Assembly (NCBI GenBank): GCA_047619465.1
Contig: JBLHJW010000002.1
Span: 1 to 42,638, forward strand
DNA from: Minisyncoccia bacterium
GTDB taxonomy: Bacteria > Patescibacteriota > Minisyncoccia > Phycocordibacterales > CSBR16-119
Length of the DNA stretch: 42,638 bases
Direction of reading: 5' to 3'
The translations under genes and the position numbers were made by a program. The notes under the pieces were generated by a model. It saw nothing but the letters and a program-made list of their open reading frames with translations. It was not told the origin of the DNA and did no database searches. Below, piece after piece: positions 5,819 to 41,367 of the stretch. Positions within the stretch are counted from its first letter, which is position 1. Each line of letters opens with the position of its first letter.

Positions 5819-7069
5819 ATGATACTTGATTTATTAAACGTCATTCTACTTTTTATACTAAATGGACTAGCAAAAACTGCACTTTTCTGGGTTCCGGTTG
5901 TTTTGTTGATTGTTGGGTGGAGACTTTGGATTAGATATGTCAATATTGCAACAATAGAAAGTAAGAAATGGACACTGTTAGAAATAAGAATTCCTAAAGA
6001 CGTATTTAGAACACCTGTTGCCATGGAAATCTTTCTTTCAAATGCTATTCACCAAACAGGGGGAATGGGAACATGGTTAAAGAAGTACTGGGATGGAAAT
6101 GTTCACACATGGTTTTCTCTGGAAATTATTTCTATTCAAGGGTCCGTCAAGTTTTTTATAAGGACAGAGAATAAATTTAGAAGATTAATAGAAGCTCAGC
6201 TATATGCGCAGTATCCCACTGTTGAAATTATTGAGTCTGAAGACTATGTAGAGAAAACAGCCAAAGAAATGATGATTAAGCCTTGGAGTATTTGGGGTTC
6301 AGAGTTTAGCTTAGCTAAAGATGACCCATATCCAATAAAAACATATGTTGATTACGGACTTGATAAATCAGGAGGAGGACTTTTAGAGGAGGAGAAAAAA
6401 ATTGATCCAATATCTCCTTTTATAGAATTTCTGGCTTCTATGAAGTCTGGAGAGCAAGCATGGTATCAAATTATTGTACGTCCATCTATAAAACGATTTA
6501 AAGATCCCAATAGTATGTTTGGTAAGATCGACTGGAAAGATGATGCCTTAAGATTGAAAGAGGATCTAATGAAGGCTCACATTGTAAAAGACGAGAACGG
6601 CAACGAGAAGCGTAATATTCAGAACATGACTCAGTCAGAAAAAGACGCCCTAACTGCGATCGAGAAAAGCATCGGCAAGCCTGGCTTTGATGTAGGAATG
6701 AGGGCTCTATATTTGGCAAAGGAAGATTCATTTGACCCAGACAACATAAATGGACTATTAGGAGCCGTTAAGCAGTACAACTCTGTTAATCTAAATAGTT
6801 TTAAGCCATCAAACACAACAGATTTTGACTATCCTTGGGAGGATCCAACAGGGTCTAGGGTTCGTAGATTGAAAAAGAAAATATTCAATGCTTACTGGGA
6901 CAGAGGTTACTTTTATCACCCTTATGATATTAAAGGTAGAAAACCTTTTGTTTTGAATTCTGAGGAACTAGCGACTATATTTCACTTCCCAAGCCGTTCA
7001 ACAGAAGCACCAACATTTGAGAGAATCGAAGCCAAAAAGGCAACACCACCACCAAATCTTCCTATATAG
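5819..7069 (+). CDS. Hypothetical membrane protein (two N-terminal TM helices)
   Basis: 416-aa ORF with no recognised family. Its stop lies 2 nt before the mltG ATG. Confidence 0.7.
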   Translation: MILDLLNVILLFILNGLAKTALFWVPVVLLIVGWRLWIRYVNIATIESKKWTLLEIRIPKDVFRTPVAMEIFLSNAIHQTGGMGTWLKKYWDGNVHTWFSLEIISIQGSVKFFIRTENKFRRLIEAQLYAQYPTVEIIESEDYVEKTAKEMMIKPWSIWGSEFSLAKDDPYPIKTYVDYGLDKSGGGLLEEEKKIDPISPFIEFLASMKSGEQAWYQIIVRPSIKRFKDPNSMFGKIDWKDDALRLKEDLMKAHIVKDENGNEKRNIQNMTQSEKDALTAIEKSIGKPGFDVGMRALYLAKEDSFDPDNINGLLGAVKQYNSVNLNSFKPSNTTDFDYPWEDPTGSRVRRLKKKIFNAYWDRGYFYHPYDIKGRKPFVLNSEELATIFHFPSRSTEAPTFERIEAKKATPPPNLPI

Positions 7070-7071
7070 AT

Positions 7072-8088
7072 ATGGAAAATACACTTTTAGAAAAAATCGG
7101 ATATTATTTTAAAAAAATAATTAGCTCCGTTAGATTTGCAACAGAGACTCAAGGTGAGCTTGTTTGGGCTGGGCTTGCTTTTTTTGTGTTCATTTTTCTT
7201 CTTTCATTTATTGCTCCACCTAGAAGCTTTATGATTCAAACTTATGTTGAGATAGAAGAAGGCTCTAGCTTAAGATCTGTTAGTGAACTTTTTTCTGAGG
7301 AAGAATACATAAAAAGCGGTCAACTTTTTGAATTTTTTGTCGTATTGTTCGGTCGTCAGAAAGGTGTAAAAGCTGGAGAGTATTTCTTTGAGCAAAGGAT
7401 AACATCACTAGAAGTGGCTTGGAGATTGGTCCGTGGAGATACTCGTGTTGCACCCGTATCAGTTACATTTTTTGAGGGGGCGACCGTGGACGAAATGGCA
7501 TGGGTTCTTGGCGAGAATCTTTATAAGTTTGATAAAGAAAAATTTATTAAATTAGCAAAACCAAAAGAAGGGTATCTGTTTCCGGATACTTATTATTTCA
7601 AAAAGAAGACTAGTCCAGAAGAAATAATAGACATACTAGAGAGAACTTTTATAGACAAAACCACAGAGATGCTTTCTTTTTTTGAAGAGTCGGGGCGGTC
7701 AATTGATGAGCTTGTGATCATGGCCTCCATTTTAGAAAAAGAGGCAGCAAATATATATGAGGAAAAGCGTACAATTGCAGGAATTCTATGGAAAAGAATC
7801 TCAATCGACATGCCCCTGCAGGTTGATGCCACTCTTAAGTACGTAACAGGTAAAGGTTCAGCTCAGCTAACAAATAAGGATCTACAGACAGATTTTCCTT
7901 ACAACACATACACAAACAGAGGTCTTCCTCCTGGTCCAATAGGAAATCCTGGTGAAGATGCCCTGAAAGCTGCTGCTAATCCAAGCGCATCCGAATATCT
8001 TTTTTACCTTCACGACAAGAATGGTGGAATTCACTATGGGAAAAATCACACAGAACACTTACGCAACAGAAGAGACCACCTGAATTAA
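7072..8088 (+). CDS. mltG: Endolytic murein transglycosylase MltG (YceG-like)
   Basis: N-terminal TM helix plus YceG motifs (ASILEKEA, NTYTNRGLPPGPIGNPG). Confidence 0.9.
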   Translation: MENTLLEKIGYYFKKIISSVRFATETQGELVWAGLAFFVFIFLLSFIAPPRSFMIQTYVEIEEGSSLRSVSELFSEEEYIKSGQLFEFFVVLFGRQKGVKAGEYFFEQRITSLEVAWRLVRGDTRVAPVSVTFFEGATVDEMAWVLGENLYKFDKEKFIKLAKPKEGYLFPDTYYFKKKTSPEEIIDILERTFIDKTTEMLSFFEESGRSIDELVIMASILEKEAANIYEEKRTIAGILWKRISIDMPLQVDATLKYVTGKGSAQLTNKDLQTDFPYNTYTNRGLPPGPIGNPGEDALKAAANPSASEYLFYLHDKNGGIHYGKNHTEHLRNRRDHLN

Positions 8089-9511: not shown

Positions 9512-10606
9512 ATGAAAACAAGTGAAGGAAAAAAAGTGTTTGTAGGAGTATCTGGAGGTGTAGATTCATCTGTTTCTTTAGCGTTGCTCCAGGAGCAGGG
9601 ATACGATGTGACCGGTGTTTTTATAAAGACCTGGCAGCCCGAATGGATAGAGTGCACTTGGCGTGATGAGCGTCGTGATGCCATGCGAGTATGTGCTCAC
9701 TTAGGCGTTGATTTTGTAACTCTTGATTTAGAAAAAGCATATAAGGAAGGTGTAGCTGATTATATGATTGCAGAATATCGATCAGGTAGAACTCCAAACC
9801 CAGACGTAATGTGCAATAAAGAAGTAAAATTCGGTGGATTTTTAGACTGGGCTCTGGAAAATGGCGCTGACTATATTGCAACAGGGCACTACACTAGAAA
9901 CAGTGATAAAGAAGGCCGCCAAAGAATGCTTGAGGGAAAAGATAAAAACAAGGACCAGTCTTACTTCCTATGGACGCTAACTCAAGACCAACTGAAGCAC
10001 ACAATTTTCCCAATAGGGGATATTCCAAAACCAAAAGTTCGAGAGCTTGCTGAGAAGTTCAATCTGCCGACAGCAAGCAAAAAGGACAGCCAAGGGGTGT
10101 GCTTTATTGGAGAGATAGATATGAAAGATTTTCTGGGTCACTATATAGATGAGAAGAACGGGGATGTTTTAAATACAGACGGAGAAGTCATCGGTGAACA
10201 CAACGGAGCTTTTCTTTTGACTATTGGTGAGAGACATGGATTCACTATCTCAAAAAAGGGAACAGAGGATAAAGCCCTATTCGTTGTAGAAAAGGATGCC
10301 GATAAAAATACTGTGACTGTTTCTGAGAAATCACCATTTGATGAGAAAGAAGGAAATACAGCTGGATATACAAAAGAAGTTTCATTGATTAAAACAAATT
10401 GGATTCCAACAGCCTTTCCTCCCTTTGGAAAGGACTTTGAGGCACGGGTACGGTATCGCGGTGAGCGACACAAATGTAACTTCATGCAGGTTAGAGATGA
10501 CACAGCTTTACTTGTTTTTGAAAATCCTGTTTGGGGTGTATCAGCCGGGCAATCAGTTGTTGTTTATGATAAAGAGGAGTGTATTGGGGGAGGTATTATC
10601 TCCTAG
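9512..10606 (+). CDS. mnmA: tRNA-specific 2-thiouridylase MnmA
   Basis: PP-loop VGVSGGVDSSV, KDQSYFL motif, catalytic Cys context. TACAAT lies 7 nt before the ATG. Confidence 0.95.
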   Translation: MKTSEGKKVFVGVSGGVDSSVSLALLQEQGYDVTGVFIKTWQPEWIECTWRDERRDAMRVCAHLGVDFVTLDLEKAYKEGVADYMIAEYRSGRTPNPDVMCNKEVKFGGFLDWALENGADYIATGHYTRNSDKEGRQRMLEGKDKNKDQSYFLWTLTQDQLKHTIFPIGDIPKPKVRELAEKFNLPTASKKDSQGVCFIGEIDMKDFLGHYIDEKNGDVLNTDGEVIGEHNGAFLLTIGERHGFTISKKGTEDKALFVVEKDADKNTVTVSEKSPFDEKEGNTAGYTKEVSLIKTNWIPTAFPPFGKDFEARVRYRGERHKCNFMQVRDDTALLVFENPVWGVSAGQSVVVYDKEECIGGGIIS

Positions 10607-10654
10607 TTATATATGATAGTATTGTCTAAAATTGTATAGGTAAAGAAATATTTA

Positions 10655-11029
10655 ATGATTCCAACAGATGGATACCTTTTGGATGAGTTTACAGAACACA
10701 TTCAAAGATATAAAGAGGTAAAAGGTTTTCTTGTTTCAAGAAAGCGCATACTACATTGGCTGAAGAAATTTAAGAATGTTGGTGTCTATGAAAGAAACTA
10801 CACCTTCAAGGATGCTTGGTTGCACAATCTAGATCTTTTCCATGACATGTCTGTTAATAGGGCTCATTTGGAAAAATACAAAAAAAGATTTGCAAAATAT
10901 GAATACCATCATCCTCAATTTGGATTTATCAAAGTCTATAAGCACATAAAGCTTTTTGATTTTGAAGGAGAAATAGTACTTGTTATTTCTCTTCCAAAAG
11001 AAGAAAAATTACCAAAGGGACTTCTGTAA
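10655..11029 (+). CDS. Hypothetical protein
   Basis: 124-aa ORF with no recognisable family. Confidence 0.55.
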   Translation: MIPTDGYLLDEFTEHIQRYKEVKGFLVSRKRILHWLKKFKNVGVYERNYTFKDAWLHNLDLFHDMSVNRAHLEKYKKRFAKYEYHHPQFGFIKVYKHIKLFDFEGEIVLVISLPKEEKLPKGLL

Positions 11030-11120
11030 TGGGGTCTTTTTTATTACCTTTTTTATATTTGACTTAATATTGGAAAAGGGTAGTATCAAATAAAAGGATA
11101 GAAACAAAAAAAACCAGTAA

Positions 11121-11588
11121 ATGGAAAAGGTGAAAAAGATAGAAAAGAGTGCAGATCCAACATGGGCTGATCATTTTAGAGAGGTGATTATTCATGGTCG
11201 CAAATTTGAAGTCCATTTCACCACAAGGGGAAAAATTTCAGACTGGTTTCTTTTAGAATTTGGCAAGGTAACTCTCCAGGAAAGGGTTTATCATATTCCT
11301 GGAAAAGAATGGATCACGGTAGAGACTCTTGCTGATGATGTATATATTACAAAAGGGTATGCTATCAAACATGGAAAGGGATATGCTAAGTATCGCATTA
11401 TCCATGAGGATTATGACTTTTACTTTATTATTTACAAGAACCTAAAGAACTGGGGCGCAGGATATAGATCACCAAGGGCTGTTGTGATTGAGAAGGACGG
11501 GTTAGAATTTCCTGTAAAGCTATTTGTTCAACCAGTAAAGATAGAGAAAACATTCTTGGAAATATTCTGTAGTCTATTTCTTCCCTAA
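11121..11588 (+). CDS. Hypothetical protein
   Basis: 155-aa ORF. Candidate promoter TTGACT-16-TAGTAT at 11059-11086 and a terminator downstream. Confidence 0.6.
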   Translation: MEKVKKIEKSADPTWADHFREVIIHGRKFEVHFTTRGKISDWFLLEFGKVTLQERVYHIPGKEWITVETLADDVYITKGYAIKHGKGYAKYRIIHEDYDFYFIIYKNLKNWGAGYRSPRAVVIEKDGLEFPVKLFVQPVKIEKTFLEIFCSLFLP

Positions 11589-11599
11589 AAACCATCAAA

Positions 11600-11626
11600 A
11601 GAGTTCCAATTGGGGCTCTTTTTTAT
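11600..11626 (+). terminator. Rho-independent terminator
   Basis: AGAGTTCC-AATT-GGGGCTCT (with G-U pairs) followed by TTTTTTATTT. Confidence 0.7.
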
Positions 11627-11652
11627 TTGTCTTAGTTTGATATACTAGACTA

Positions 11653-13437
11653 ATGACACATCATGAAATAAGACAGAGATTTCTAAATTTCTTTGAGAAG
11701 CGAGGACATACAGTTCTTCCTTCAGCCTCTCTTGTAACCACAGACGAACCAGGTCAAACAAACAAAACACTGTTTAATACTGCAGGCATGCAGCCACTTG
11801 TTCCGTATCTAATGGGAGAAGTTCATCCAGATGGACAGAGGCTTGCTAGTGCTCAGAAATGTCTACGAACAGTAGATATAGAAGAGGTTGGAGATAATAC
11901 CCATAATACTTTTTTTGAAATGCTTGGAAATTGGTCTCTTGGAGATTATTTCAAGGAGGATGCTATTAACTGGAGTTATGAATTTCTAACGAACCCGGAG
12001 GAGGGTCTTGGGTTGGACTCGTCTCGCATCTACGTGACAGTTTTTGCGGGGAATGATGACGTTCCAAGAGACATGGAATCTGTAGAGATATGGAAATCTA
12101 TTGGAATTTCCGAAGATAGAATATATTTCCGTGATAGTAAGGACAATTGGTGGACAGCTGGGGCTGATTCTCCTGCGGGTCCATCATCTGAGATGTTCTA
12201 CGATTTGACTGGAGAGCTTGGAGATATGACATCCGATGAGTTTGAGAAGGCGGATCATGATCAAAAAGTTTTAGAGATTTGGAATGATGTCTTTATGTCT
12301 TACAGACAAGAGGCTGGAAAAGTTGTCGGAGATCTGCCACAGAAAAATGTGGATACAGGAGCTGGTCTAGAACGAATCACTGCCGTGGTTCAAGAAAAAG
12401 CACATATATATGAGACAACTATTTTTGCTCCATATATTTCATATATAAAAGAAAACTCACTAAACTACAATGAAGTAAAAGCTCGAATAATTGCTGACCA
12501 CTTCCGGGCGACAGTTTTTATAATATCAGATGGTATTTTTCCTTCAAACACAGATAGAGGGTATGTGCTCCGAAGGCTTATTCGAAGACTAATAATGGCG
12601 GGAAGAAATATATCTTTCTCTGGAGAGTATGATGATTTGGTAGAAATGATAGAAACTGATTATTCTTCTGTGTATAGAAATATAGACAAGATGAAAGTAA
12701 GTGAAATATTCGAAAATGAAAAAGTTAAGTTTGAGAAGGCAATAGAAAGGGGTCAGAAAGAACTTGCTAAGCTTTCTTCAAAAGATGAATTTATCCTATC
12801 AGGAGAAGATCTTTCATTGTTAGAGCAGACTCACGGCCTACCAGTAGAGCTAACACTGTCTCTTGCTGTAGAGTCTGGAGCCTCTGTTTCAGATTCAGCA
12901 GTTCGTGACTATGAAGACCTGGTAAAAAAACACAAAAAACTTTCCCAAACCTCAGCAGAAGGAAAGTTTAAGGGTGGCTTGGCAGGCGAGAGCGAGATAG
13001 AGATTAAGTACCATACGACCACTCACATGCTTCACCAGGCCCTTAGAGAGGTTCTAGGTAATCATGTAACACAGAAGGGAAGCAATATCACCCCAGATCG
13101 TCTTAGATTTGATTTTTCTCACAGTGAAAAGATGACAGACGAAGAAAAGAGCAGAGTGGAGGATTTAATTAATGAAAAAATAGAGGAAGACTTGCCAGTT
13201 CTTAAAGACGAAATGACCCTTGACCAAGCACGTGAGGCTGGAGCCCTGGGTGTATTTGGTGACAAATATGGAGAAACAGTTAATGTTTATGAAATAGGAA
13301 AAGGAGAAGATATATTCTCAAAAGAAATATGCGGTGGTCCACATGTAGAATCTACTGGCGTACTTGGCAAATTTAGAATAAAAAAAGAAGAAGCCAGCTC
13401 GGCTGGAGTGCGAAGAATAAAAGCAGTGTTGGAATAA
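11653..13437 (+). CDS. alaS: Alanine--tRNA ligase, short form lacking the C-Ala domain
   Basis: Class II AlaRS N-terminus (IRQRFLNFFEKRGHT). Editing domain has HTTTHMLH and CGGPHV and ends right after GVRRIKAV. TGaTATACT lies 6 nt before the ATG. Confidence 0.95.
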   Translation: MTHHEIRQRFLNFFEKRGHTVLPSASLVTTDEPGQTNKTLFNTAGMQPLVPYLMGEVHPDGQRLASAQKCLRTVDIEEVGDNTHNTFFEMLGNWSLGDYFKEDAINWSYEFLTNPEEGLGLDSSRIYVTVFAGNDDVPRDMESVEIWKSIGISEDRIYFRDSKDNWWTAGADSPAGPSSEMFYDLTGELGDMTSDEFEKADHDQKVLEIWNDVFMSYRQEAGKVVGDLPQKNVDTGAGLERITAVVQEKAHIYETTIFAPYISYIKENSLNYNEVKARIIADHFRATVFIISDGIFPSNTDRGYVLRRLIRRLIMAGRNISFSGEYDDLVEMIETDYSSVYRNIDKMKVSEIFENEKVKFEKAIERGQKELAKLSSKDEFILSGEDLSLLEQTHGLPVELTLSLAVESGASVSDSAVRDYEDLVKKHKKLSQTSAEGKFKGGLAGESEIEIKYHTTTHMLHQALREVLGNHVTQKGSNITPDRLRFDFSHSEKMTDEEKSRVEDLINEKIEEDLPVLKDEMTLDQAREAGALGVFGDKYGETVNVYEIGKGEDIFSKEICGGPHVESTGVLGKFRIKKEEASSAGVRRIKAVLE

Positions 13438-35270: not shown

Positions 35271-36407
35271 ATGAAAGATATCCACCAGATACTGAAAACT
35301 AGACCGACATATGTTGAGGTGGATTTTGATGCTCTTCGTCACAATTTCAATCAGATAAAAGATCATGTTGGTGATAAGAAAATTCTTTGCATAGTAAAGG
35401 GAAATGGATATGGTCATGGGGCTGTTGAAGTTTCTAGGGTTTACGAGAAGCTGGGGGCTAACTACCTCGGTGTGGCAATTGCAGAAGAAGGAGTGGAGCT
35501 TAGAGAAGCAGGGATAAAAATACCTATTCTTGTTATGGGCGGTTTAGCTCTGAATCAGATAGATCTTTGTATCCAAAGAGGTTTAACTATCACAGCACCT
35601 TCCGATGAGAAACTTTTGTATATAAATAAGACAGCTGGAGAAATGAAAAAGATAGCAAAGGTTCACTTGAAAGTAGACACAGGTATGGGGCGTATAGGTG
35701 TTAACTTCGCTAGGGTAAATAAGTTTTATAAAATAATGAAAGAGTGTGAGAATTGTGAATTTGAAGGAATATACTCTCACTTTGCAGCTTCAGACACTGA
35801 TGGAGATTTTACAAAAACACAAATAGAAAGATTTGAAAATGTAATTTCCAAATTTGAGGAAGAGGGTTTTAGCTTCAAAATAAAACATCTCGCAAACTCA
35901 GCTGGACTTCTCAACTATCCAGAGTCACGGTTTGATATGGTTCGTCCTGGGATTATTCTCTATGGACTGCATGAAGGATTTACAATTCCAGAAGAAATAG
36001 ATTTAAAGCCTGTTATGAGTTGGAAGACACAAGTTGTTTACTTCAAGTTTCTTGAGAAGAACACTCCAATCAGCTATGGTTTACTTTATAAGAACTCAGA
36101 AGACACTCATATTGTGACAATTCCAGTTGGCTACGCTGATGGATACCAGAGAAGTCTTTCAAATGGTGGCCACGTAACAATCAATGATAAAAAATATCCA
36201 GTAGTAGGGAGAATCTGCATGGATCAGATAATGATTGATATAGGTATAGATGGTGAGGCCTATAAAGGAGATGAAGTGATTCTTGTTGGATCTTCTGAAA
36301 GCCAGAATATAACTTTCTATGATTTATCCAGATGGGGAAATACTAGTGTTCATGAACTACTGGCTCAAATAAGCTATCGAGTGCCAAGGATATATCTTGA
36401 CTCTTAA
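35271..36407 (+). CDS. alr: Alanine racemase
   Basis: PLP-lysine motif VKGNGYGHG and a C-terminal beta domain. TGtTATTCT lies 6 nt before the ATG. Confidence 0.95.
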   Translation: MKDIHQILKTRPTYVEVDFDALRHNFNQIKDHVGDKKILCIVKGNGYGHGAVEVSRVYEKLGANYLGVAIAEEGVELREAGIKIPILVMGGLALNQIDLCIQRGLTITAPSDEKLLYINKTAGEMKKIAKVHLKVDTGMGRIGVNFARVNKFYKIMKECENCEFEGIYSHFAASDTDGDFTKTQIERFENVISKFEEEGFSFKIKHLANSAGLLNYPESRFDMVRPGIILYGLHEGFTIPEEIDLKPVMSWKTQVVYFKFLEKNTPISYGLLYKNSEDTHIVTIPVGYADGYQRSLSNGGHVTINDKKYPVVGRICMDQIMIDIGIDGEAYKGDEVILVGSSESQNITFYDLSRWGNTSVHELLAQISYRVPRIYLDS

Positions 36408-36434
36408 AAATCCATTTCTGAAAATGGATTATTT
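36406..36434 (+). terminator. Rho-independent terminator
   Basis: AATCCATTT-CTGA-AAATGGATT followed by ATTT. Confidence 0.7.
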
Positions 36435-36491
36435 AGTTACCCTATAAGATTAGGATCTTTTGTGATAAAGTTGGGAAAAAGAACATTTCAA

Positions 36492-37700
36492 ATGGGAAAA
36501 GTAAAACAACCTCTCTTGTTTGATATCAAGAAAGACCCAATAAAGAAAAATTATAAGACGCACAATAAGCATATCTTATCTATAAGAAAGCATGAGATGT
36601 GGGAAGACAATCTTCCTTCTGCCGATTTTATAGGATTGCCACACGTATTTCTATCTGGTGCTTTTGAGAATAGGTCTCGAATTTCAAATACTTCAAGACC
36701 GACCATGAGCAAGAGTAGTATTCTCACTGGAATGGCTGAACTATTACATGTTAAGAACACAACACTTCTTAGAGATGAAATAGAGAAGTATATTCGCAGG
36801 GAATCATATCTGCTTAAGAAAGAAACAAAAGCAAGAAGGATAGTGAATCCTGCTGGTGAAGATTTTTTCTATGCGGCTATTGAAAGAGGATTTAATCATT
36901 TTGAGGATGAGTATCTACTACCAGGATATCTAAGAGAGCGCATGAGGGATAGCATTCCTCAAACAAGCACTCCTATGAAATTCAGTGGCGTTACTCGTTT
37001 TGTCGCCAATGGGACAGGTGATATGAATTGGTACCAGGATACCAATAAAGCCCTACAGAGACTTTTGCCAGATCATCCAATTAAGTTGCTGTGTGATTTA
37101 TTTGCAGCAACATCTATTCGAGCAAGCTTGGAGAGTAATGTTACAAAATTCTTTTCTGCCCTAGATCAGTACTATGAAAACCGTCTGAGAAAAGTAACCG
37201 TTACTGGGCAAGGTGGAAAGAAGGTTATTATTGACAGCTATTTTGATAAATTCTTGGATGCTACAATAATAAATCTTAACCATATCAAGAATGGAATTGA
37301 ATTGGGTGGAGGGAAAAAAGGATCAGCCAGAAAGATTCGTAATTTTTCATTAGCGATGCAAGGATTTATTCATGCTGTTGTTGCAGATATTTGGATCACA
37401 AGAGTCTTCGATGCTGATGTTCTTTATAAGTATAAAGGTGAATACACCAGCAGAGCCCCCTCAAATAGTCTATACAATGCCATTGAATGGTATACACGTG
37501 ATTTAGCTAAGACTATTGGTTTTGAGGCTAGAGCCGTTAACGCCATGATGTGGGGCTCAATTCGTTTTGAGGAAGATGATACCAAGAACGATACTAAATA
37601 TCAGGTTCCACTTGGTCAACGTTTAAGTCACGGACTATTTACTGATCAGTATGGATCACTTGTTTCCACAGGAAATGGTATAGCTTTTAAGCAATACTAA
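36492..37700 (+). CDS. Hypothetical protein, family not recognised
   Basis: Long ORF starting at ATG 36492 or GTG 36462. Conserved-looking polar patches (LFAATSIRASLESN, KIRNFSLAMQG, VADIWITRVF). Confidence 0.7.
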   Translation: MGKVKQPLLFDIKKDPIKKNYKTHNKHILSIRKHEMWEDNLPSADFIGLPHVFLSGAFENRSRISNTSRPTMSKSSILTGMAELLHVKNTTLLRDEIEKYIRRESYLLKKETKARRIVNPAGEDFFYAAIERGFNHFEDEYLLPGYLRERMRDSIPQTSTPMKFSGVTRFVANGTGDMNWYQDTNKALQRLLPDHPIKLLCDLFAATSIRASLESNVTKFFSALDQYYENRLRKVTVTGQGGKKVIIDSYFDKFLDATIINLNHIKNGIELGGGKKGSARKIRNFSLAMQGFIHAVVADIWITRVFDADVLYKYKGEYTSRAPSNSLYNAIEWYTRDLAKTIGFEARAVNAMMWGSIRFEEDDTKNDTKYQVPLGQRLSHGLFTDQYGSLVSTGNGIAFKQY

Positions 37701-37727
37701 AAATCTCACTTTTTGTGAGATTTTTTG
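37700..37727 (+). terminator. Rho-independent terminator
   Basis: ATCTCAC-TTTTT-GTGAGAT followed by TTTTT. Confidence 0.85.
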
Positions 37728-37732
37728 TTTTC

Positions 37733-37761
37733 TTGACCAAAGCTTCTTTGGCAAGTAGTAT
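37733..37761 (+). promoter_or_regulatory. Promoter TTGACC-17-TAGTAT with the palindrome CCAAAG-CTT-CTTTGG spanning the -35 box and spacer
   Basis: TTGACC at 37733-37738, TAGTAT at 37756-37761, palindrome at 37737-37751. Confidence 0.55.
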
Positions 37762-37784
37762 TAAGAAAACTAAATATAGTCCTC

Positions 37785-38975
37785 ATGGCAAGAAAAACAC
37801 TTGAGCAGAGGATTGTTGAATCCTTTGAAAAATATAAAAAACACCTAGAGCCTGGACGTGTATCAGTTACAAGATCTATAGAAATTCTAGATATTGATCT
37901 AGTTAATTGTGTCACTCAGATGAGAACAGAGTTTACTGGAATTGAAGATCTAGCAGAGAGTATTGCCTCTGAAGGTTTAATACAGCAATCTACAGCTGTT
38001 ATGTTCAACGGAACACAGGCAAAAGAATATCTAGATATGATTAACTACATGCATGGAACTAAGCACCGCTTGAGTTCTTTGGTGGAGGCAAAATATCTTG
38101 GTAAGACAGTTTACTACATTTTAATATGTGGAGAGAGACGCCTACGAGCACTCAAACACCTATGGTATAAAGGTTGTCAAATGTGTCGCGGTTCGGTTAC
38201 GGGAAAACTTGAAGAAGGAGTATGTTTCAAAAACCACTTTAATGACATGTCTGGTAAGTCATTTCATTTTTCTGTCTCTAGGAATACAGTTCCACCAAAG
38301 GGTTTACTGGTTCAGTTTGCGGAGAACAGCTATGTTTCTCCAGGAGCACATGCTTTGGCCGCTGTTTATGGTCCTTGGTATAAATTAAAAAAGCTTCAGG
38401 ATCCAAAAACAACAATTCAGTATTTTGCTAATAGTGTAGGGAAGTCTCCACAGACTATAAGTAAATATATTGGCTACGTTGACCTTCCTTCTAAACTGCG
38501 AAAGTACGTTGAGAATGGAAAAATGAAATACGATACTGTTGCTGAAATTTCCAGATACCAAAAGGCTGGAGCCAACAAAGACCAGCTGATGGAATCATTC
38601 GTTTCAATTGGTCTTTATTACAAGAGCACAAGATCAGCCAGAAAATATATCAATGGCAAGATTGATGACCTAAATCCTAAGCAGATAAAAATGTTCGAGA
38701 TGGTTGTTGAAAAGCCAGCCTATAAAAAGATAGTTGATCCTCAGATTGCTAAGCATTTGGTCAAAGATCATGAATTCTTCTCCAGACTTGCTGATTTCAT
38801 TAATGATGGCTTTTTGACAAAAGAGGATAACCTGTTTTCGGATGAAGTTCAGCTTAGATATCTAAGTAGCGTTATTGAAACTGAAACAGAAGCATTGCCT
38901 GTTTTAAAGCAGCTAGTTGATTCAGATAAGTATAATTTATTCAAAACAGCTTTGGGTCAATTAAAAAGAGCGTGA
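37785..38975 (+). CDS. ParB/Srx N-terminal-domain protein with HTH, orphan (no parA), carrying a Cys/His insert
   Basis: QMRTEF...LAESIASEGLIQ...ICGERRLRAL (ParB GERR box, 38127-38150). ENSYV plus the HTH FANSVGKSPQTISKYIGYVDLP. The insert CQMCRGS...CFKNH follows the GERR box. Confidence 0.8.
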   Translation: MARKTLEQRIVESFEKYKKHLEPGRVSVTRSIEILDIDLVNCVTQMRTEFTGIEDLAESIASEGLIQQSTAVMFNGTQAKEYLDMINYMHGTKHRLSSLVEAKYLGKTVYYILICGERRLRALKHLWYKGCQMCRGSVTGKLEEGVCFKNHFNDMSGKSFHFSVSRNTVPPKGLLVQFAENSYVSPGAHALAAVYGPWYKLKKLQDPKTTIQYFANSVGKSPQTISKYIGYVDLPSKLRKYVENGKMKYDTVAEISRYQKAGANKDQLMESFVSIGLYYKSTRSARKYINGKIDDLNPKQIKMFEMVVEKPAYKKIVDPQIAKHLVKDHEFFSRLADFINDGFLTKEDNLFSDEVQLRYLSSVIETETEALPVLKQLVDSDKYNLFKTALGQLKRA

Positions 38976-38992
38976 TTTTCACGCTCTTTTTT
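38963..38992. terminator. Bidirectional terminator (parB-like and cysS converge here)
   Basis: AGAGCGTGA-TTT-TCACGCTCT flanked by A5 and T6. The TGA stop lies in the stem. Confidence 0.85.
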
Positions 38993-39056
38993 ATACCCCA
39001 GAGTATCTTCTCTCCCTGATATCGATTTATCATACTCTTTGGGTTCACCTTAATAC

Positions 39057-40418
39057 CTAAATCTTTTCTATTACTGGTCCGTTTTCTGTGTCTAATATAG
39101 TGTATCCTTTAGTTTTTAATTCATCCCTGAGTGTGTCTGCAGTTTGCCAATCCTTTTCTTTTCTAGCTTTCTCTCTTTGAGCTGCTAATTTTTTGATGTC
39201 ATTTGGAACTTTAAAATCTAGAGATTCTTGAATCCCTAACCCCAAGAATTCATCCATTTTCAAAAGCGTCTTTAATTTGCTAGCAGACTTTAAAGAATTA
39301 TCTTTTAACATTTCCCAAGTTAGAGCAAGACCCTTTGGCGCATCTAGGTCATCATTTATTGCCTCAGTAAATTTATCAAGATATTCCACACTTTCTTTGG
39401 CAAGGAGACTTGAAAGAAAACCAGATATCAAGCCTCGAGCCAGGTGGTGGATATTTCTAAGAGCATTTTGACTTGCTTCAACCGCCTCTAAAGTGAAGTT
39501 CGTTTGAGTTCTGTAATGAGCTTGAAGTAAGAAGTATCGGAAAGCGACAGGGGAGAAACCTTTCTCTTGTAAGTCGCGAAGTGTGTAAAAATTTCCGTCA
39601 CTTTTTGACATCTTTTTACCATCCACCATTAAGTGAGAGTTGTGCAGCCAGTAGTTTACAAACTCTCCACCATTACAACAAACAGACTGAGCTATTTCAT
39701 TTTCGTGGTGGGGAAACATGTTGTCTACTCCTCCGGTGTGGATATCAAAATGATTTCCTAGGTACTTTGTACTCATGGCCGAACACTCAATATGCCAACC
39801 TGGATGTCCTTTCCCGAGTGTTGTCTCCCAAGCTACATCACCATCTTTTGGGTCGTAGGCTTTCCAGAGTGCAAAATCCTGAACATTGTCTTTAGTGTAT
39901 TCATCGCTCGCCACACGTTCGGTTTGTTTAGTTGAGCTTAAATCTACTCTTGATAGTTCTCCATACTTTGAAAATGAGGATATATCGAAGTATGTACTTC
40001 CGTCGGGTGCTTTATAAGCGTTGTCGTTATCAATAAGGGTTTCAATCATCTTCACCATTTCTGGGATGTGTTCAGTCGCCTTAGGAAAGGTGTCTGCTGG
40101 AATTACGTTTAAAGAGTCGAGGTCATTCATAAAACCAACTGTATAGAATTCAGTAAATTCTTTTAGACTTTTTCCTTGCTTTTGTGAGTCTCGGATGGTC
40201 TTGTCGTCGACATCTGTGATGTTCATTACATGCTTTACTGATAGACCATTGAAAATAAGTGTTCTTTTTAAAAGATCAGCAAAAACATAGGCTCTAGCAT
40301 TTCCAATATGGGGGTAGTCGTAGACAGTTGGACCGCAGGAATACATAGAAACCTGACCAGTTTCTATTGGTGTAAACTCTTCTAACTCTCTTGTCTTGCT
40401 ATTGAAAAACTTTATCAT
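39057..40418 (-). CDS. cysS: Cysteine--tRNA ligase
   Basis: HIGN and KMSKS class I signatures. The start is set at M30 (MIKFFNSKTRELEEF), which removes the overlap with corA. Confidence 0.95.
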   Translation of the reverse strand: MIKFFNSKTRELEEFTPIETGQVSMYSCGPTVYDYPHIGNARAYVFADLLKRTLIFNGLSVKHVMNITDVDDKTIRDSQKQGKSLKEFTEFYTVGFMNDLDSLNVIPADTFPKATEHIPEMVKMIETLIDNDNAYKAPDGSTYFDISSFSKYGELSRVDLSSTKQTERVASDEYTKDNVQDFALWKAYDPKDGDVAWETTLGKGHPGWHIECSAMSTKYLGNHFDIHTGGVDNMFPHHENEIAQSVCCNGGEFVNYWLHNSHLMVDGKKMSKSDGNFYTLRDLQEKGFSPVAFRYFLLQAHYRTQTNFTLEAVEASQNALRNIHHLARGLISGFLSSLLAKESVEYLDKFTEAINDDLDAPKGLALTWEMLKDNSLKSASKLKTLLKMDEFLGLGIQESLDFKVPNDIKKLAAQREKARKEKDWQTADTLRDELKTKGYTILDTENGPVIEKI

Positions 40419-40452
40419 GACGTCTATTGTATCATAGCCACCATAAGCCACA

Positions 40453-41367
40453 CTAGAACCAGCGTTTGATTTTAAAGTAGATAAACAAGGTGACTCCAAG
40501 AACAATCATAACTCCCGCTATTCTATAAAAATCAACCTCAGTAAGCTTTAGAGCTGTATTCATTCCAAAGATACCTGTTATAAGAGTCAAAGGAAGCATT
40601 ATGAAAGACATGATTGTTAGAGCTTTCATTACTGAGTTTATTTTGTTTGTGAGAAGAGCGTCATTTGTTTCTTTTAGGTCGTGGAGAACATCTTTATGGT
40701 TTTCTAGGGTTGTTTTTACTCGCCGATGATCTCCAAGAATATCTGACAAATAGTGCTTGAAACCTGTACCAAACAAATCTGTTCCAGATCGTTCAAAAGA
40801 GTTTAGTATGTCACCATGGACGTTTATAGCTTGTCGAAAATCAATTAGTCTTCTGTTTAATTCAGATATTTTACGAACCATTTTTTCCTCCATGTTTTCA
40901 AATATTTTCTCCTCAATAAACTCCAACTCTGTATCAATGACCTGTAGTTGGTCAAGAGAGCTTTTGTATAGCTCTCGCACGATATTAAAGAAAAGAAACC
41001 CAGCGTGGTCACCTAGATCTGTTTTTTCTAGGGTTGCGTTAGTATTAAACACTTTTGAGAATTCCTTGAGAGAAATAACCTCTTCGTAGTGTGTTGTTAT
41101 TAGAAAGTCTTTTCCTATTATGAAATCGATTTCTATTTCATTCTGAGAACTGTCTCCTTTTTGAATTATTGTTGGAAAGTGAAGAACCAAGAAGACAAGT
41201 CCTTCTTTTTCGTAGTAATCAACCTTTCCTCGAAGAGTTCTCTCTGTCATCTCACTTGCAGCCAAGTCTGGTATCTGGTACTCCTCCGTTAAGTGAAGAA
41301 CCTCCTCTTTTGTTGGATTGTAAACATCAATCCATTTTATTTTGTTGTGGGAATATGTTGAAATCAT
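40453..41367 (-). CDS. corA: CorA-family magnesium transporter
   Basis: GMN motif (GIFGMNT) before the last TM helix, with the typical cytoplasmic N-domain. Confidence 0.9.
   Translation of the reverse strand: MISTYSHNKIKWIDVYNPTKEEVLHLTEEYQIPDLAASEMTERTLRGKVDYYEKEGLVFLVLHFPTIIQKGDSSQNEIEIDFIIGKDFLITTHYEEVISLKEFSKVFNTNATLEKTDLGDHAGFLFFNIVRELYKSSLDQLQVIDTELEFIEEKIFENMEEKMVRKISELNRRLIDFRQAINVHGDILNSFERSGTDLFGTGFKHYLSDILGDHRRVKTTLENHKDVLHDLKETNDALLTNKINSVMKALTIMSFIMLPLTLITGIFGMNTALKLTEVDFYRIAGVMIVLGVTLFIYFKIKRWF

Follow-up and report, generated by a model that had tools for sequence, protein, structure and literature searches.

In the genome of a Minisyncoccia bacterium (assembly GCA_047619465.1), contig JBLHJW010000002.1 carries two adjacent genes that we interpret, at a probability of roughly one half (about 0.5), as a Patescibacteria-specific, two-component module for DNA-base processing. 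The window, that is, the whole 42,638-nt stretch of this contig that was analysed, is numbered along its forward strand. As the original prediction had proposed, its open reading frame (ORF) listing places two plus-strand ORFs between alr (35271-36407) and the convergent cysS gene, and Pfam confirmed the identity of both flanks (alanine racemase, E 2e-69; CysS, E 3.5e-110). Gene 1 (36492-37700, +) encodes a protein of 402 aa with a putative DUF7178 domain, which is very probably a remote DNA glycosylase/lyase, and gene 2 (37785-38975, +) encodes a 396-aa orphan protein of the ParB/Noc/KorB class with a predicted nucleoside triphosphate (NTP)-binding N-domain, a helix-turn-helix (HTH) and a C-terminal region predicted to be helical. 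That the two genes stay together in related genomes points to a previously undescribed DNA-surveillance pair rather than a partition system.

Gene 1 contains a putative DUF7178 domain with remote similarity to HhH-GPD glycosylases

Gene 1 had initially been thought to match no recognisable family. This view did not hold, as its C-terminal ~200 aa (36969-37631, +) appear to belong to DUF7178 (PF23802) as a divergent member. The window protein itself scored 19.7-21.7 bits against PF23802, below the gathering score of 27, and weakly matched phrog_3842; no other Pfam family and no NCBIfam family was matched. Its orthologues P0005 and P0006 carry precomputed PF23802 matches. A search with the gene-1 family profile found 566 relatives, and PF23802 was hit by 41 of 41 large relatives at E <=0.001 and by 43 of 43 aligned sequences (42 stand-alone relatives and the window domain) at E <=10. 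Full-length matches measured ~350-490 aa. The remaining relatives share only the C-terminal ~200 aa, align only to positions ~160-380 of the gene-1 profile, and are either stand-alone proteins of ~200 aa or modules within proteins of 450-2300 aa. The helical N-terminal region of gene 1 (36492-36968, +; aa 1 to ~159, with a conserved DFIxxP motif at aa 45-50) was confined to the full-length Patescibacteria proteins that have a partner; stand-alone phage DUF7178 proteins lack it.

Some of the large DUF7178 proteins also carry ART-PolyVal, DUF3293, InPase, SAM-lyase, methyltransferase, topoisomerase IB or GemA domains, a set that corresponds to the polyvalent-protein repertoire of phages and conjugative elements (PMC5512222), and polyvalent proteins were also the best viral structural matches of the gene-1 model. 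The phage and polyvalent forms belong to the same domain family as gene 1, and actinophage annotators use the label N-glycosylase/DNA lyase for the stand-alone members. Unlike gene 1, the phage and polyvalent forms either stand alone at ~200 aa or are part of proteins of 600-2300 aa, and they have neither the N-terminal region nor a constant partner of the ParB or GIY-YIG type. A glycosylase domain is not mentioned in the 2017 survey of polyvalent proteins (Iyer et al., PMC5512222).

The full-length family is sparse. A search of 1.84 billion cluster representatives found 45 at E <=1e-30, and only eight close homologues, one of them identical to the window protein, were present among 5.8 billion proteins. 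A metagenome scan yielded only two loci. With the close-family alignment, a first scan of GTDB genomes yielded nothing, and full-length relatives were likewise absent from a scan of IMG/VR. When the stand-alone relative P0145 was used as a tblastn query, phages gave no match.

We consider it very probable that DUF7178 is a remote HhH-GPD N-glycosylase/apurinic-apyrimidinic (AP) lyase of the OGG2/endonuclease III (EndoIII) type. The assignment is based on the agreement of five independent lines of evidence, none of which is significant alone. When the 43-sequence DUF7178 profile was run against 177,635 Protein Data Bank (PDB) sequences, the top five matches were all 8-oxoguanine (8-oxoG) glycosylase/AP-lyases (9o00, 9o02, 3n0u, 3knt and 3fhf; E-values 0.17-0.59), and the alignment ran from the VVVDxWxxRAF helix, which holds the catalytic Asp, through the later helices to the end of the domain. 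A 75-sequence profile placed four of these five enzymes within its first seven matches, 3n0u being first, with E-values that were not better. The full-length gene-1 profile (A7) returned only noise from the PDB sequences. In a Foldseek search of the PDB with the AlphaFold2 (AF2) model of gene 1 (predicted local distance difference test score (pLDDT) 82; predicted template modelling score 0.82), human or mouse OGG1 was the sole recurring family, with 9 of the top 21 matches, at weak values (E 0.4-2.6, probability <=0.5, template modelling score 0.22-0.28). Matches of single members to Pfam, at noise level, included HhH-GPD (0.038) and OGG (0.15). In GenBank phage records, DUF7178 proteins (Pfam E 4e-62 and 2.5e-57) are labelled "N-glycosylase/DNA lyase" or "glycosylase".

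Alignment by hhalign to three EndoIII sequences, of which the E. coli query was confirmed to be identical to 2abk, paired Lys281 and Asp299 of gene 1 with Lys120 and Asp138, with an identical spacing of 18 residues (P 0.014); the score was reached by 1 of 120 column-shuffled controls, and the extended alignment was collinear at low confidence. Lys281 (codon 37332-37334, +) aligns with the catalytic Lys120 of E. coli EndoIII, and Asp299 (codon 37386-37388, +) with both EndoIII Asp138 and the Asp of the OGG2 motif "IIDRH". Lys281 was invariant in the full-length, stand-alone and broader alignments (A7, A9 and A11), and Asp299 was invariant in A7 and A9 and nearly so in A11; in the polyvalent set, the equivalent of Asp299 was invariant and that of Lys281 nearly invariant. 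Both residues fall in motifs of the gene-1 domain (WY, 180-181; FAATSIR, 204-210; SNVTK, 215-219; ARKIRNF, 279-285; VVADIWITRVF, 296-306). The predicted secondary structure, with helices at 256-266, 280-289 and 300-305 separated by loops, fits a helix-hairpin-helix (HhH) followed by an Asp-capped helix. Gene 1 shares with OGG2 and EndoIII (3knt, 3n0u, 9o00, 2abk) an all-helical build, the succession of helix, hairpin, Lys helix, 10-residue loop and Asp-capped helix, the Lys-Asp spacing of 18, and collinear motifs before ("LAATS" versus "LLSAQAT") and after the catalytic pair. It differs from them in a degenerate Gly-rich HhH hairpin, the lack of an Fe-S cluster loop, and the additional N-terminal region of ~160 aa.

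We also observed DNA-associated neighbours of DUF7178 in actinophages, which loosely parallel the ParB pairing described below. In Rhodococcus phage Francesca (L023:3091-4467), a stand-alone DUF7178 "glycosylase" near the genome end is followed by an Lsr2-like DNA-bridging protein, and in Mycobacterium phage prophiGD54-2 (L022:1880-3648), a stand-alone DUF7178 near the genome end is followed by a DUF932 protein.

Gene 2 encodes a divergent ParB-class protein

Judged by profile, alignment and AF2 model, the product of gene 2 truly belongs to the ParB/Noc/KorB class, although it has diverged very far, and the ParB N-domain and HTH that had been read from its sequence were confirmed. A profile of the gene-2 family reached hundreds of canonical ParBs at ~E 1e-9, and among PDB sequences it matched Noc and ParB at E 2e-8. 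More than 440 bits separated the four gene-2 family members found in this search from any canonical ParB; canonical ParBs exist in Paceibacterota and related groups, as the same search showed. The window protein fell below the cut-offs (given in parentheses) for ParB_N, 16.3 (26.3), HTH_ParB, 17.8 (22.6), and TIGR00180, 33.3 (58.45), with a further sub-threshold match to KorB and matches to ParB-like PHROG families. Two family members passed Pfam gathering, namely those of L016 (ParB_N 28.1, HTH_ParB 38.9) and L019 (HTH_ParB 23.8). In Foldseek, the AF2 model matched ParB, KorB and Noc structures, including ParB-CDP (6sdk, E 2.4e-6), 7bnk, 8qa9 and 7ng0, and the N-domain and HTH were modelled mostly at pLDDT >90 (blocks 76-94).

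The nucleotide-binding motifs are well preserved. Box I, or C-motif, QMRTEF (37917-37934, +; aa 45-50) and Box II GERRLRAL (38130-38153, +; aa 116-123) were found in full, and Q45, R47, F50, G116, E117, R118 and R119 were invariant when gene 2 was aligned with 18 canonical ParBs, with S59 and G64 also kept. As the patterns Q-x-[RK]-x-x-[FY] and GE[RK]R, both boxes were present in 12 of 12 ParB-like partners of gene 1. By alignment, the conserved residues correspond to the CTP-binding and hydrolysis residues given for Myxococcus ParB (PMC13229309). Gene 2 thus appears to retain the canonical residues of the CTP pocket, and CTP binding, hydrolysis and clamp closure are predicted. A remnant of Box III, AENS, lies at 38319-38330 (+; aa 179-182). 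The ParB-type HTH region (38394-38543, +; aa ~204-253), with matches to HTH_ParB, KorB and TIGR00180, contains the HTH GKSPQTISKYIGYVDLP at aa 219-235 and is spanned by the PDB profile alignment to the DNA-binding domains of Noc, ParB and KorB.

Gene 2 departs from canonical ParBs in several respects. The ParA-activating N-terminal peptide LG(R/K)GLxxLI, which is carried by most of the canonical ParBs aligned, several of them from Patescibacteria, was absent from the window protein and from three other aligned family members. The Cys/His insert that had been placed after the arginine box, at about 38161-38290, proved to be well founded: CQMCRGSVTGKLEEGVCFKNH (38175-38237, +; aa 131-151) follows the GERR helix directly with the spacing CxxC-x12-C-x3-H, was modelled at pLDDT >=90, and recurred as CxxC-x12-17-C-x3-H in 9 of 12 ParB-like partners, being missing only in the clade of L003, L007 and L008. 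We predict that this CCCH insert is a zinc knuckle. A second family-specific insertion, a helix of ~25 aa before GERR, was present in all gene-2 family members. The long helical C-terminus suggested earlier was helical by prediction, albeit with low confidence (pLDDT ~45-55 across the C-terminal third), and no alignment was obtained between this domain and the dimerisation domains of ParBs.

The expectation that no parA adjoins gene 2 was likewise confirmed. Its neighbours in the window are gene 1, alr and cysS, and no parA-like ORF was found among the called neighbours in the window or in the related loci examined. By tblastn, neither the window nor loci L001-L010 contained a further ParB. 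Compared with ParB, Noc and KorB (PF02195, PF17762), gene 2 has the same N-domain fold, HTH, QxRxxF, GERRxRA and Box III EN. It differs in lacking a parA neighbour, the ParA-activating peptide and the Box III Arg, in having the helix before GERR and the CCCH insert after it, in its unrelated or unalignable C-terminal domain, in scores of the window protein that stay under the Pfam gathering thresholds, and in always being found with a DUF7178 protein.

Gene 1 is paired with one of two alternating partners across Patescibacteria

The pair was recovered in further genomes by exact-protein look-ups, a metagenome scan and a scan of GTDB genomes, and loci were classified with hidden Markov models (HMMs) built on earlier loci. 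Distinct Patescibacteria loci with sufficient flanking sequence numbered 19, six of which came from the independent GTDB scan. In all 19, a partner gene adjoined the full-length gene-1 homologue, and order and orientation were the same in 18 of them. This conservation of neighbourhood upholds the suggestion that the two genes form a real pair. GTDB genomes carrying it were titled Candidatus Paceibacterota, Nomurabacteria and Saccharibacteria (Patescibacteria). In 11 loci the partner was ParB-like (window, L001, L003, L007, L008, L016, L019, L026, L027, L029, L030), and in 8 it was a GIY-YIG protein of ~275-320 aa (L010, L011, L012, L014, L018, L020, L024, L025). Gene 1 and gene 2 constitute a conserved unit in Patescibacteria, and their proteins may be physically coupled.

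By its profile, the other kind of partner belongs to the GIY-YIG nucleases and is similar to UvrC: its matches among solved proteins were UvrC (1yd6, E 6.6e-5) and I-TevI (1mk0, E 0.23), and a pattern search found GIY...YIG...R...H in 5 of 7 of these proteins. They usually end in an acidic tail (...DDPPF, ...DLPF/...EDLPF or ...GDVPF). In a neighbour-joining tree of gene 1, the partner type was coherent within clades and switched more than once.

Some further features of the partners and of gene 1 were observed. The acidic tail of the GIY-YIG partners resembles the C-terminal protein-docking tail of bacterial single-stranded DNA-binding protein (SSB), a type of tail that commonly serves as a docking site for repair and replication factors. 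The acidic-tailed genes are located at L018:1846-2772, L012:5748-6689, L011:7287-8114, L020:4583-5500, L025:4897-5853 and L010:456-1406(-). An apparent degenerate second GIY-YIG-like repeat was seen in the N-terminal half of the GIY-YIG partners. Gene 1 is duplicated in tandem at L028:3841-6323 and L030:5437-7988, in one Nomurabacteria and one Saccharibacteria genome; downstream of the two copies at L030 there is one ParB-like gene. The genes downstream of gene 1 in L011 and L012 were considered as hidden ParB-like genes and rejected at hhalign probabilities <1%; they proved to encode GIY-YIG proteins. L031 was considered as an exception to the pairing and was also set aside. It is a stand-alone DUF7178 of phage type (157-1725) from an uncultured bacterium of higher GC content, truncated where the contig stops and followed by a 341-aa protein with a long, low-complexity, charged C-terminus; its setting is phage-like, and it is not a Patescibacteria pair.

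The pair was found in several housekeeping settings, which are conserved within lineages. It lies at dnaK-dnaJ...cysS-corA in the window and L001, upstream of and adjoining rmuC in L003, L007 and L008, and at nrdAB...secA in L019, L029, L030 and the P0003 contig; GIY-YIG-type pairs lie at gmk...trxB-ftsZ in L012, L020 and L025. The pair was held at gmk...trxB-ftsZ and other housekeeping loci across deep divergence, for example at 67% identity of FtsZ. Between the window and L001, identities were 71-86% for housekeeping proteins, 71% for the ParB-like protein and 48% for gene 1; in other locus comparisons, gene 1 and the partner gene both evolved faster than their neighbours. In the window, GC content and skew showed no shift and no island signature at the pair, and neither flanking direct repeats nor an integrase was found there.

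The flanks of the pair are variable in places. In L001, an unrelated 349-aa gene (6823-7872) takes the place of alr. L001 also has, at 10551-11755, a Pol-beta-type nucleotidyltransferase (NTase) gene and a 74-aa ORF, possibly toxin-antitoxin-like, before cysS (compare window 38976-39056). A phage-type integrase gene lies ~4 kb upstream of the GIY-type pair in L011 (611-1906), and a gene for an EVE protein (PUA-like, a reader of modified bases) lies two genes upstream of the GIY-type pair in L012 (3341-3796); neither is conserved in syntenic relatives. The P0003 contig has a DUF559 neighbour.

A proposed base-processing module and its relation to known systems

Based on these observations, we propose the following scheme. 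Gene 1 would flip out and excise a damaged or modified base and nick the strand, with Lys281 as the putative Schiff-base nucleophile and Asp299 as the putative catalytic acid. Gene 2 would dimerise, load on DNA and close as a nucleotide-gated clamp, and once closed, the clamp may bring the glycosylase to duplex DNA, keep it there or activate it. The replacement of the ParB-like protein by a GIY-YIG nuclease in sister lineages suggests that the partner, whichever its type, would supply the DNA-engaging or incision half of the reaction. The scheme builds on the folds and motifs of both proteins, on the invariant Lys and Asp and on the strict adjacency of the genes in many genomes; the enzymatic activity of gene 1, the CTP dependence of gene 2 and the physical coupling of the two proteins are all inferred. 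The earlier idea of a novel CTP-switch pair survives in a more specific form. The boldest version of it would be a ParB-like sliding clamp with a glycosylase as its cargo, in which the clamp loads on DNA, closes with CTP and carries or licenses the enzyme along the duplex, base scanning and excision are processive and under CTP-switch control, the CCCH knuckle by the nucleotide pocket couples the sensing of a partner or lesion to the gating of the clamp, and the glycosylase is alternatively plugged into a GIY-YIG nuclease. We regard this version as unlikely. If it were true, it would represent a new functional class of CTP-switch system, and the DUF7178 domains of phage polyvalent proteins would be injected DNA glycosylases.

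Precedents exist for ParB-fold partners of DNA-base enzymes. The ATPase DpdB is required for DNA transglycosylation by DpdA (PMC10164549), and that pair, like ours, joins a base-processing enzyme to a separately encoded ParB-fold NTPase, which is proposed to encircle DNA (PMC10164549). The likeness is a functional analogy only. DpdA has a tRNA-guanine transglycosylase (TGT) fold and gene 1 is HhH-GPD-like; DpdB has DGQQR, hydrolyses ATP and carries another C-terminal domain, whereas gene 2 has GERR; and dpd belongs to a large, multi-gene restriction-modification cluster. In a second case, ParB176 activates the phage thymine dioxygenase 5mYOX176 specifically on double-stranded DNA (PMC13229309, 2026). 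There too, an orphan ParB-like gene with conserved canonical CTP-binding residues adjoins the gene for a DNA-base enzyme, for which it is a specific activator. In contrast to our pair, that enzyme is an iron/2-oxoglutarate (Fe/2OG) dioxygenase, the ParBs of that system have no DNA-binding domain like the HTH still present in gene 2, and the system is encoded by phages instead of a Patescibacteria chromosome. The same report cites KorB-KorA as a clamp that retains its partner on DNA (PMC13229309). More generally, orphan ParB-CTPases are common and enriched on mobile elements, with various domain fusions and an often divergent Box III (Kaljevic et al. 2025, PMC12704722). Gene 2 resembles them in having no parA, no ParA-binding motif and a divergent Box III; a glycosylase or DUF7178 partner, a zinc insert and Patescibacteria are not mentioned there (PMC12704722).

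Several observations weigh against the proposed scheme. Every test of the HhH-GPD assignment was marginal (HMM E 0.17-0.6, Foldseek probability 0.5, hhalign P ~0.01), and a single phage DUF7178 sequence gave only noise against the PDB. In Box III of gene 2, E180 and N181 are kept, and the Arg of the canonical ENxxR is missing (ENSYVSP). We found no loading site for the putative clamp: canonical parS (TGTTNCACGTGAAACA-like) gave 0 matches at <=3 mismatches in the 42.6-kb window, no 16-nt palindrome was common to the 11 ParB-type loci, and the palindrome at the gene-2 promoter-like site was not conserved. A motif inside gene 2, TTAGATATCTAA, had 7 matches in the window versus 4.6 expected and was not enriched. 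The two genes are probably transcribed as independent units, since a terminator that recurs in relatives lies between them. The GIY-YIG swap could make the partner an independent effector instead of a clamp or activator. Finally, mutation of NTP-binding residues did not abolish activation in the 5mYOX system (PMC13229309), so CTP gating of gene 2 cannot be assumed.

Alternative explanations for the pair

Two of the alternatives concern the role of the module and leave its molecular make-up unchanged or nearly so. In the first, the pair acts in restriction-like defence: the glycosylase would excise a modified base from phage or other foreign DNA and nick it, and the ParB-like clamp or the GIY-YIG nuclease would complete its recognition or its cleavage. 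The molecular pair is the same as in the proposed module, only its role is specified, and we hold this as a tentative reading, with a probability somewhat short of even. In its favour are the predominance of DUF7178 in phage early genes and injected polyvalent proteins, the much faster evolution of gene 1 than of its neighbours (48% versus 71-86% identity), the repeated switching of partner type across the gene-1 tree, the tandem duplications in L028 and L030, the sparse occurrence of the family (45 clusters), and neighbours of the kind found in variable islands (NTase in L001, DUF559 in the P0003 contig, EVE in L012 and an integrase in L011). It fits poorly with the maintenance of the same housekeeping loci across deep divergence, with native base composition, and with the lack of a methylase or other self-protection gene nearby. 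A defence-type module was among the possibilities raised by the original prediction; against it, neither protein matched any family of PADLOC-DB 2.0 at E <=1.

In the second, the pair carries out accessory base-excision repair in some Patescibacteria, where the glycosylase/lyase would remove an endogenous lesion that the partner helps to find or process. This too is conceivable, with the odds against it; we lean slightly to restriction-like surveillance. In favour of repair are stable inheritance at dnaK-dnaJ...cysS, upstream of rmuC, at nrdAB...secA and at gmk...trxB-ftsZ, native composition and the absence of a PADLOC match. The nearest solved relatives of gene 1 are 8-oxoG repair enzymes, and the GIY-YIG partner is nearest to UvrC and has an SSB-like acidic tail. 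Set against this, the pair occurs more sparsely than suits a repair system, both of its genes evolve quickly, and most relatives are found in phages.

It is improbable that the genes are merely adjacent, with gene 1 acting as an enzyme on its own and gene 2 as a nucleoid protein or a regulator like KorB or Noc. On this view, their separate promoters and terminators would be a sign of independence: in the window and in the majority of the other ParB-type loci examined, the genes are divided by a terminator and a promoter-like site, and the two genes evolve at differing rates. Nonetheless, adjacency in all 19 loci, with the same order and orientation in 18, extends over at least four unrelated neighbourhoods and several candidate phyla.

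A slightly less favoured alternative, also improbable, is that the pair modifies bases instead of excising them, the HhH-GPD-like enzyme exchanging or editing a base in a reaction powered by the ParB-like NTPase, after the manner of DpdA/DpdB. HhH-GPD enzymes are not known to be transglycosylases, precursor-biosynthesis genes are absent nearby, and the alternative partner is a nuclease. These points count against a model that has in its favour a ParB-fold NTPase needed by a DNA base-exchange enzyme (PMC10164549) and a DNA dioxygenase that requires a ParB-like activator (PMC13229309).

We judge it very unlikely that gene 2 serves this lineage as its chromosomal partition ParB, in which case parA and parS would lie at other sites and gene 1 would be an unrelated neighbour. 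A sole, syntenic chromosomal ParB had been named among the outcomes that would refute the original prediction, and half of this was found, in that gene 2 is syntenic; its CTP-binding motifs and HTH are also intact, and its identity between the window and L001 (71%) is like that of housekeeping neighbours. However, it lacks the ParA-activating peptide of canonical Patescibacteria ParBs, always adjoins gene 1 and is replaced by a GIY-YIG protein in 8 loci, and these three properties argue against an ordinary partition ParB. The gap of >440 bits to canonical ParBs, which exist in Paceibacterota and related groups, the lack of parS in the window, and the C-terminal domain that cannot be aligned to ParB dimerisation domains point the same way.

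Equally hard to sustain is the proposal, also made at the outset, of a mobile-element remnant, that is, a maintenance or leading-region cassette of a prophage, plasmid or integrative and conjugative element that became fixed in the chromosome and has no cellular role now: both folds are indeed common in phages and plasmids (PMC5512222, PMC12704722) and flanking gene content differs between the window and L001, but both ORFs are intact, with invariant catalytic residues, in at least 19 loci, neither an integrase, repeats nor a tRNA was found in the window, where composition is also even across the pair, synteny is vertical in several lineages, including the same site in a relative with 71-86% identical housekeeping proteins, and IMG/VR holds no relative of the full-length family.

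Novelty of the proposed base-processing module

The ParB fold, the category of orphan ParBs and the "glycosylase" label on phage DUF7178 proteins were already known. As far as the literature and database searches reach, the conserved glycosylase-ParB module, its alternation with GIY-YIG, the CCCH insert by the nucleotide pocket, and an evidence-based link between DUF7178, including its polyvalent forms, and HhH-GPD appear to be new; the literature search found no publication on DUF7178, nor one joining polyvalent proteins, a glycosylase and ParB. ParB-fold NTPases outside segregation have been recognised only recently (Noc, KorB, DpdB and, in 2026, the 5mYOX activators). If the proposed module is real, it would be the third independent ParB-fold partner of a DNA-base enzyme and the first to serve base excision; in no earlier case would the ParB have retained both its HTH and all canonical CTP-binding residues. 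DUF7178, which is widespread in phage early genes and polyvalent proteins, would gain a testable function as a DNA glycosylase/lyase, with a bearing on phage-host conflict over DNA base modifications. A lineage-specific DNA-processing module would also be added for Patescibacteria, whose repair and defence repertoires are poorly understood, and the repeated swap between ParB-like and GIY-YIG proteins would offer a natural experiment on what the partner contributes.

Gene starts, transcription signals and minor features of the locus

Gene 1 may start at ATG 36492 or at an alternative GTG at 36462, which would give 412 aa. ATG 36492 is the likelier start, since all homologue alignments begin there, a 100% identical 402-aa protein (P0004) was called in another assembly, and a leader of ~20 nt before this ATG is kept in the syntenic relative L001. 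This leader (GAAAAAGAACATTTCA[A/G]ATG; window 36471-36491, L001 7978-8000) is nearly identical in the two loci despite only 48% identity of the gene-1 proteins, and no obvious Shine-Dalgarno sequence was seen in it (36471-36491).

Terminator-like hairpins, each formed by an inverted repeat on the plus strand, were located after alr and directly upstream of gene 1 (36403-36436), between gene 1 and gene 2 (37693-37731), and after gene 2, facing the convergent cysS (38960-38994). The claim that each gene has its own terminator was therefore correct. An equivalent of the intergenic hairpin was readable in 4 of 5 other ParB-type intergenic regions examined, and its presence and recurrence make separate transcription of the two genes probable. 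The strong promoter with a small palindrome that had been assigned to gene 2 was sustained only in part. Both elements exist, the promoter-like site at 37733-37761 (+; TTGACC-17-TAGTAT) and the overlapping palindrome CCAAAGCTTCTTTGG at 37737-37751 (+). The site matches the consensus at 9 of 12 positions, promoter-like sites in the region numbered 20 versus 16.5 +/- 3.6 in shuffled sequence and were thus not in excess, and the palindrome was not conserved in L001, the closest syntenic relative. Rfam and tRNA scans of the window gave no matches.

A 17-nt inverted repeat (82% complementary) joins the coding regions of gene 1 (36918-36934) and gene 2 (38853-38869) and contains the palindrome TTAGATATCTAA; it is probably a chance occurrence, since that motif is not enriched in the window. 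Finally, cysS as listed (39057-40505, -), with a TTG start at 40505, overlaps the end of a corA-like gene (40453-41367, -) by ~50 nt, and comparison with L001 suggests that its true start is an internal ATG near 40430.

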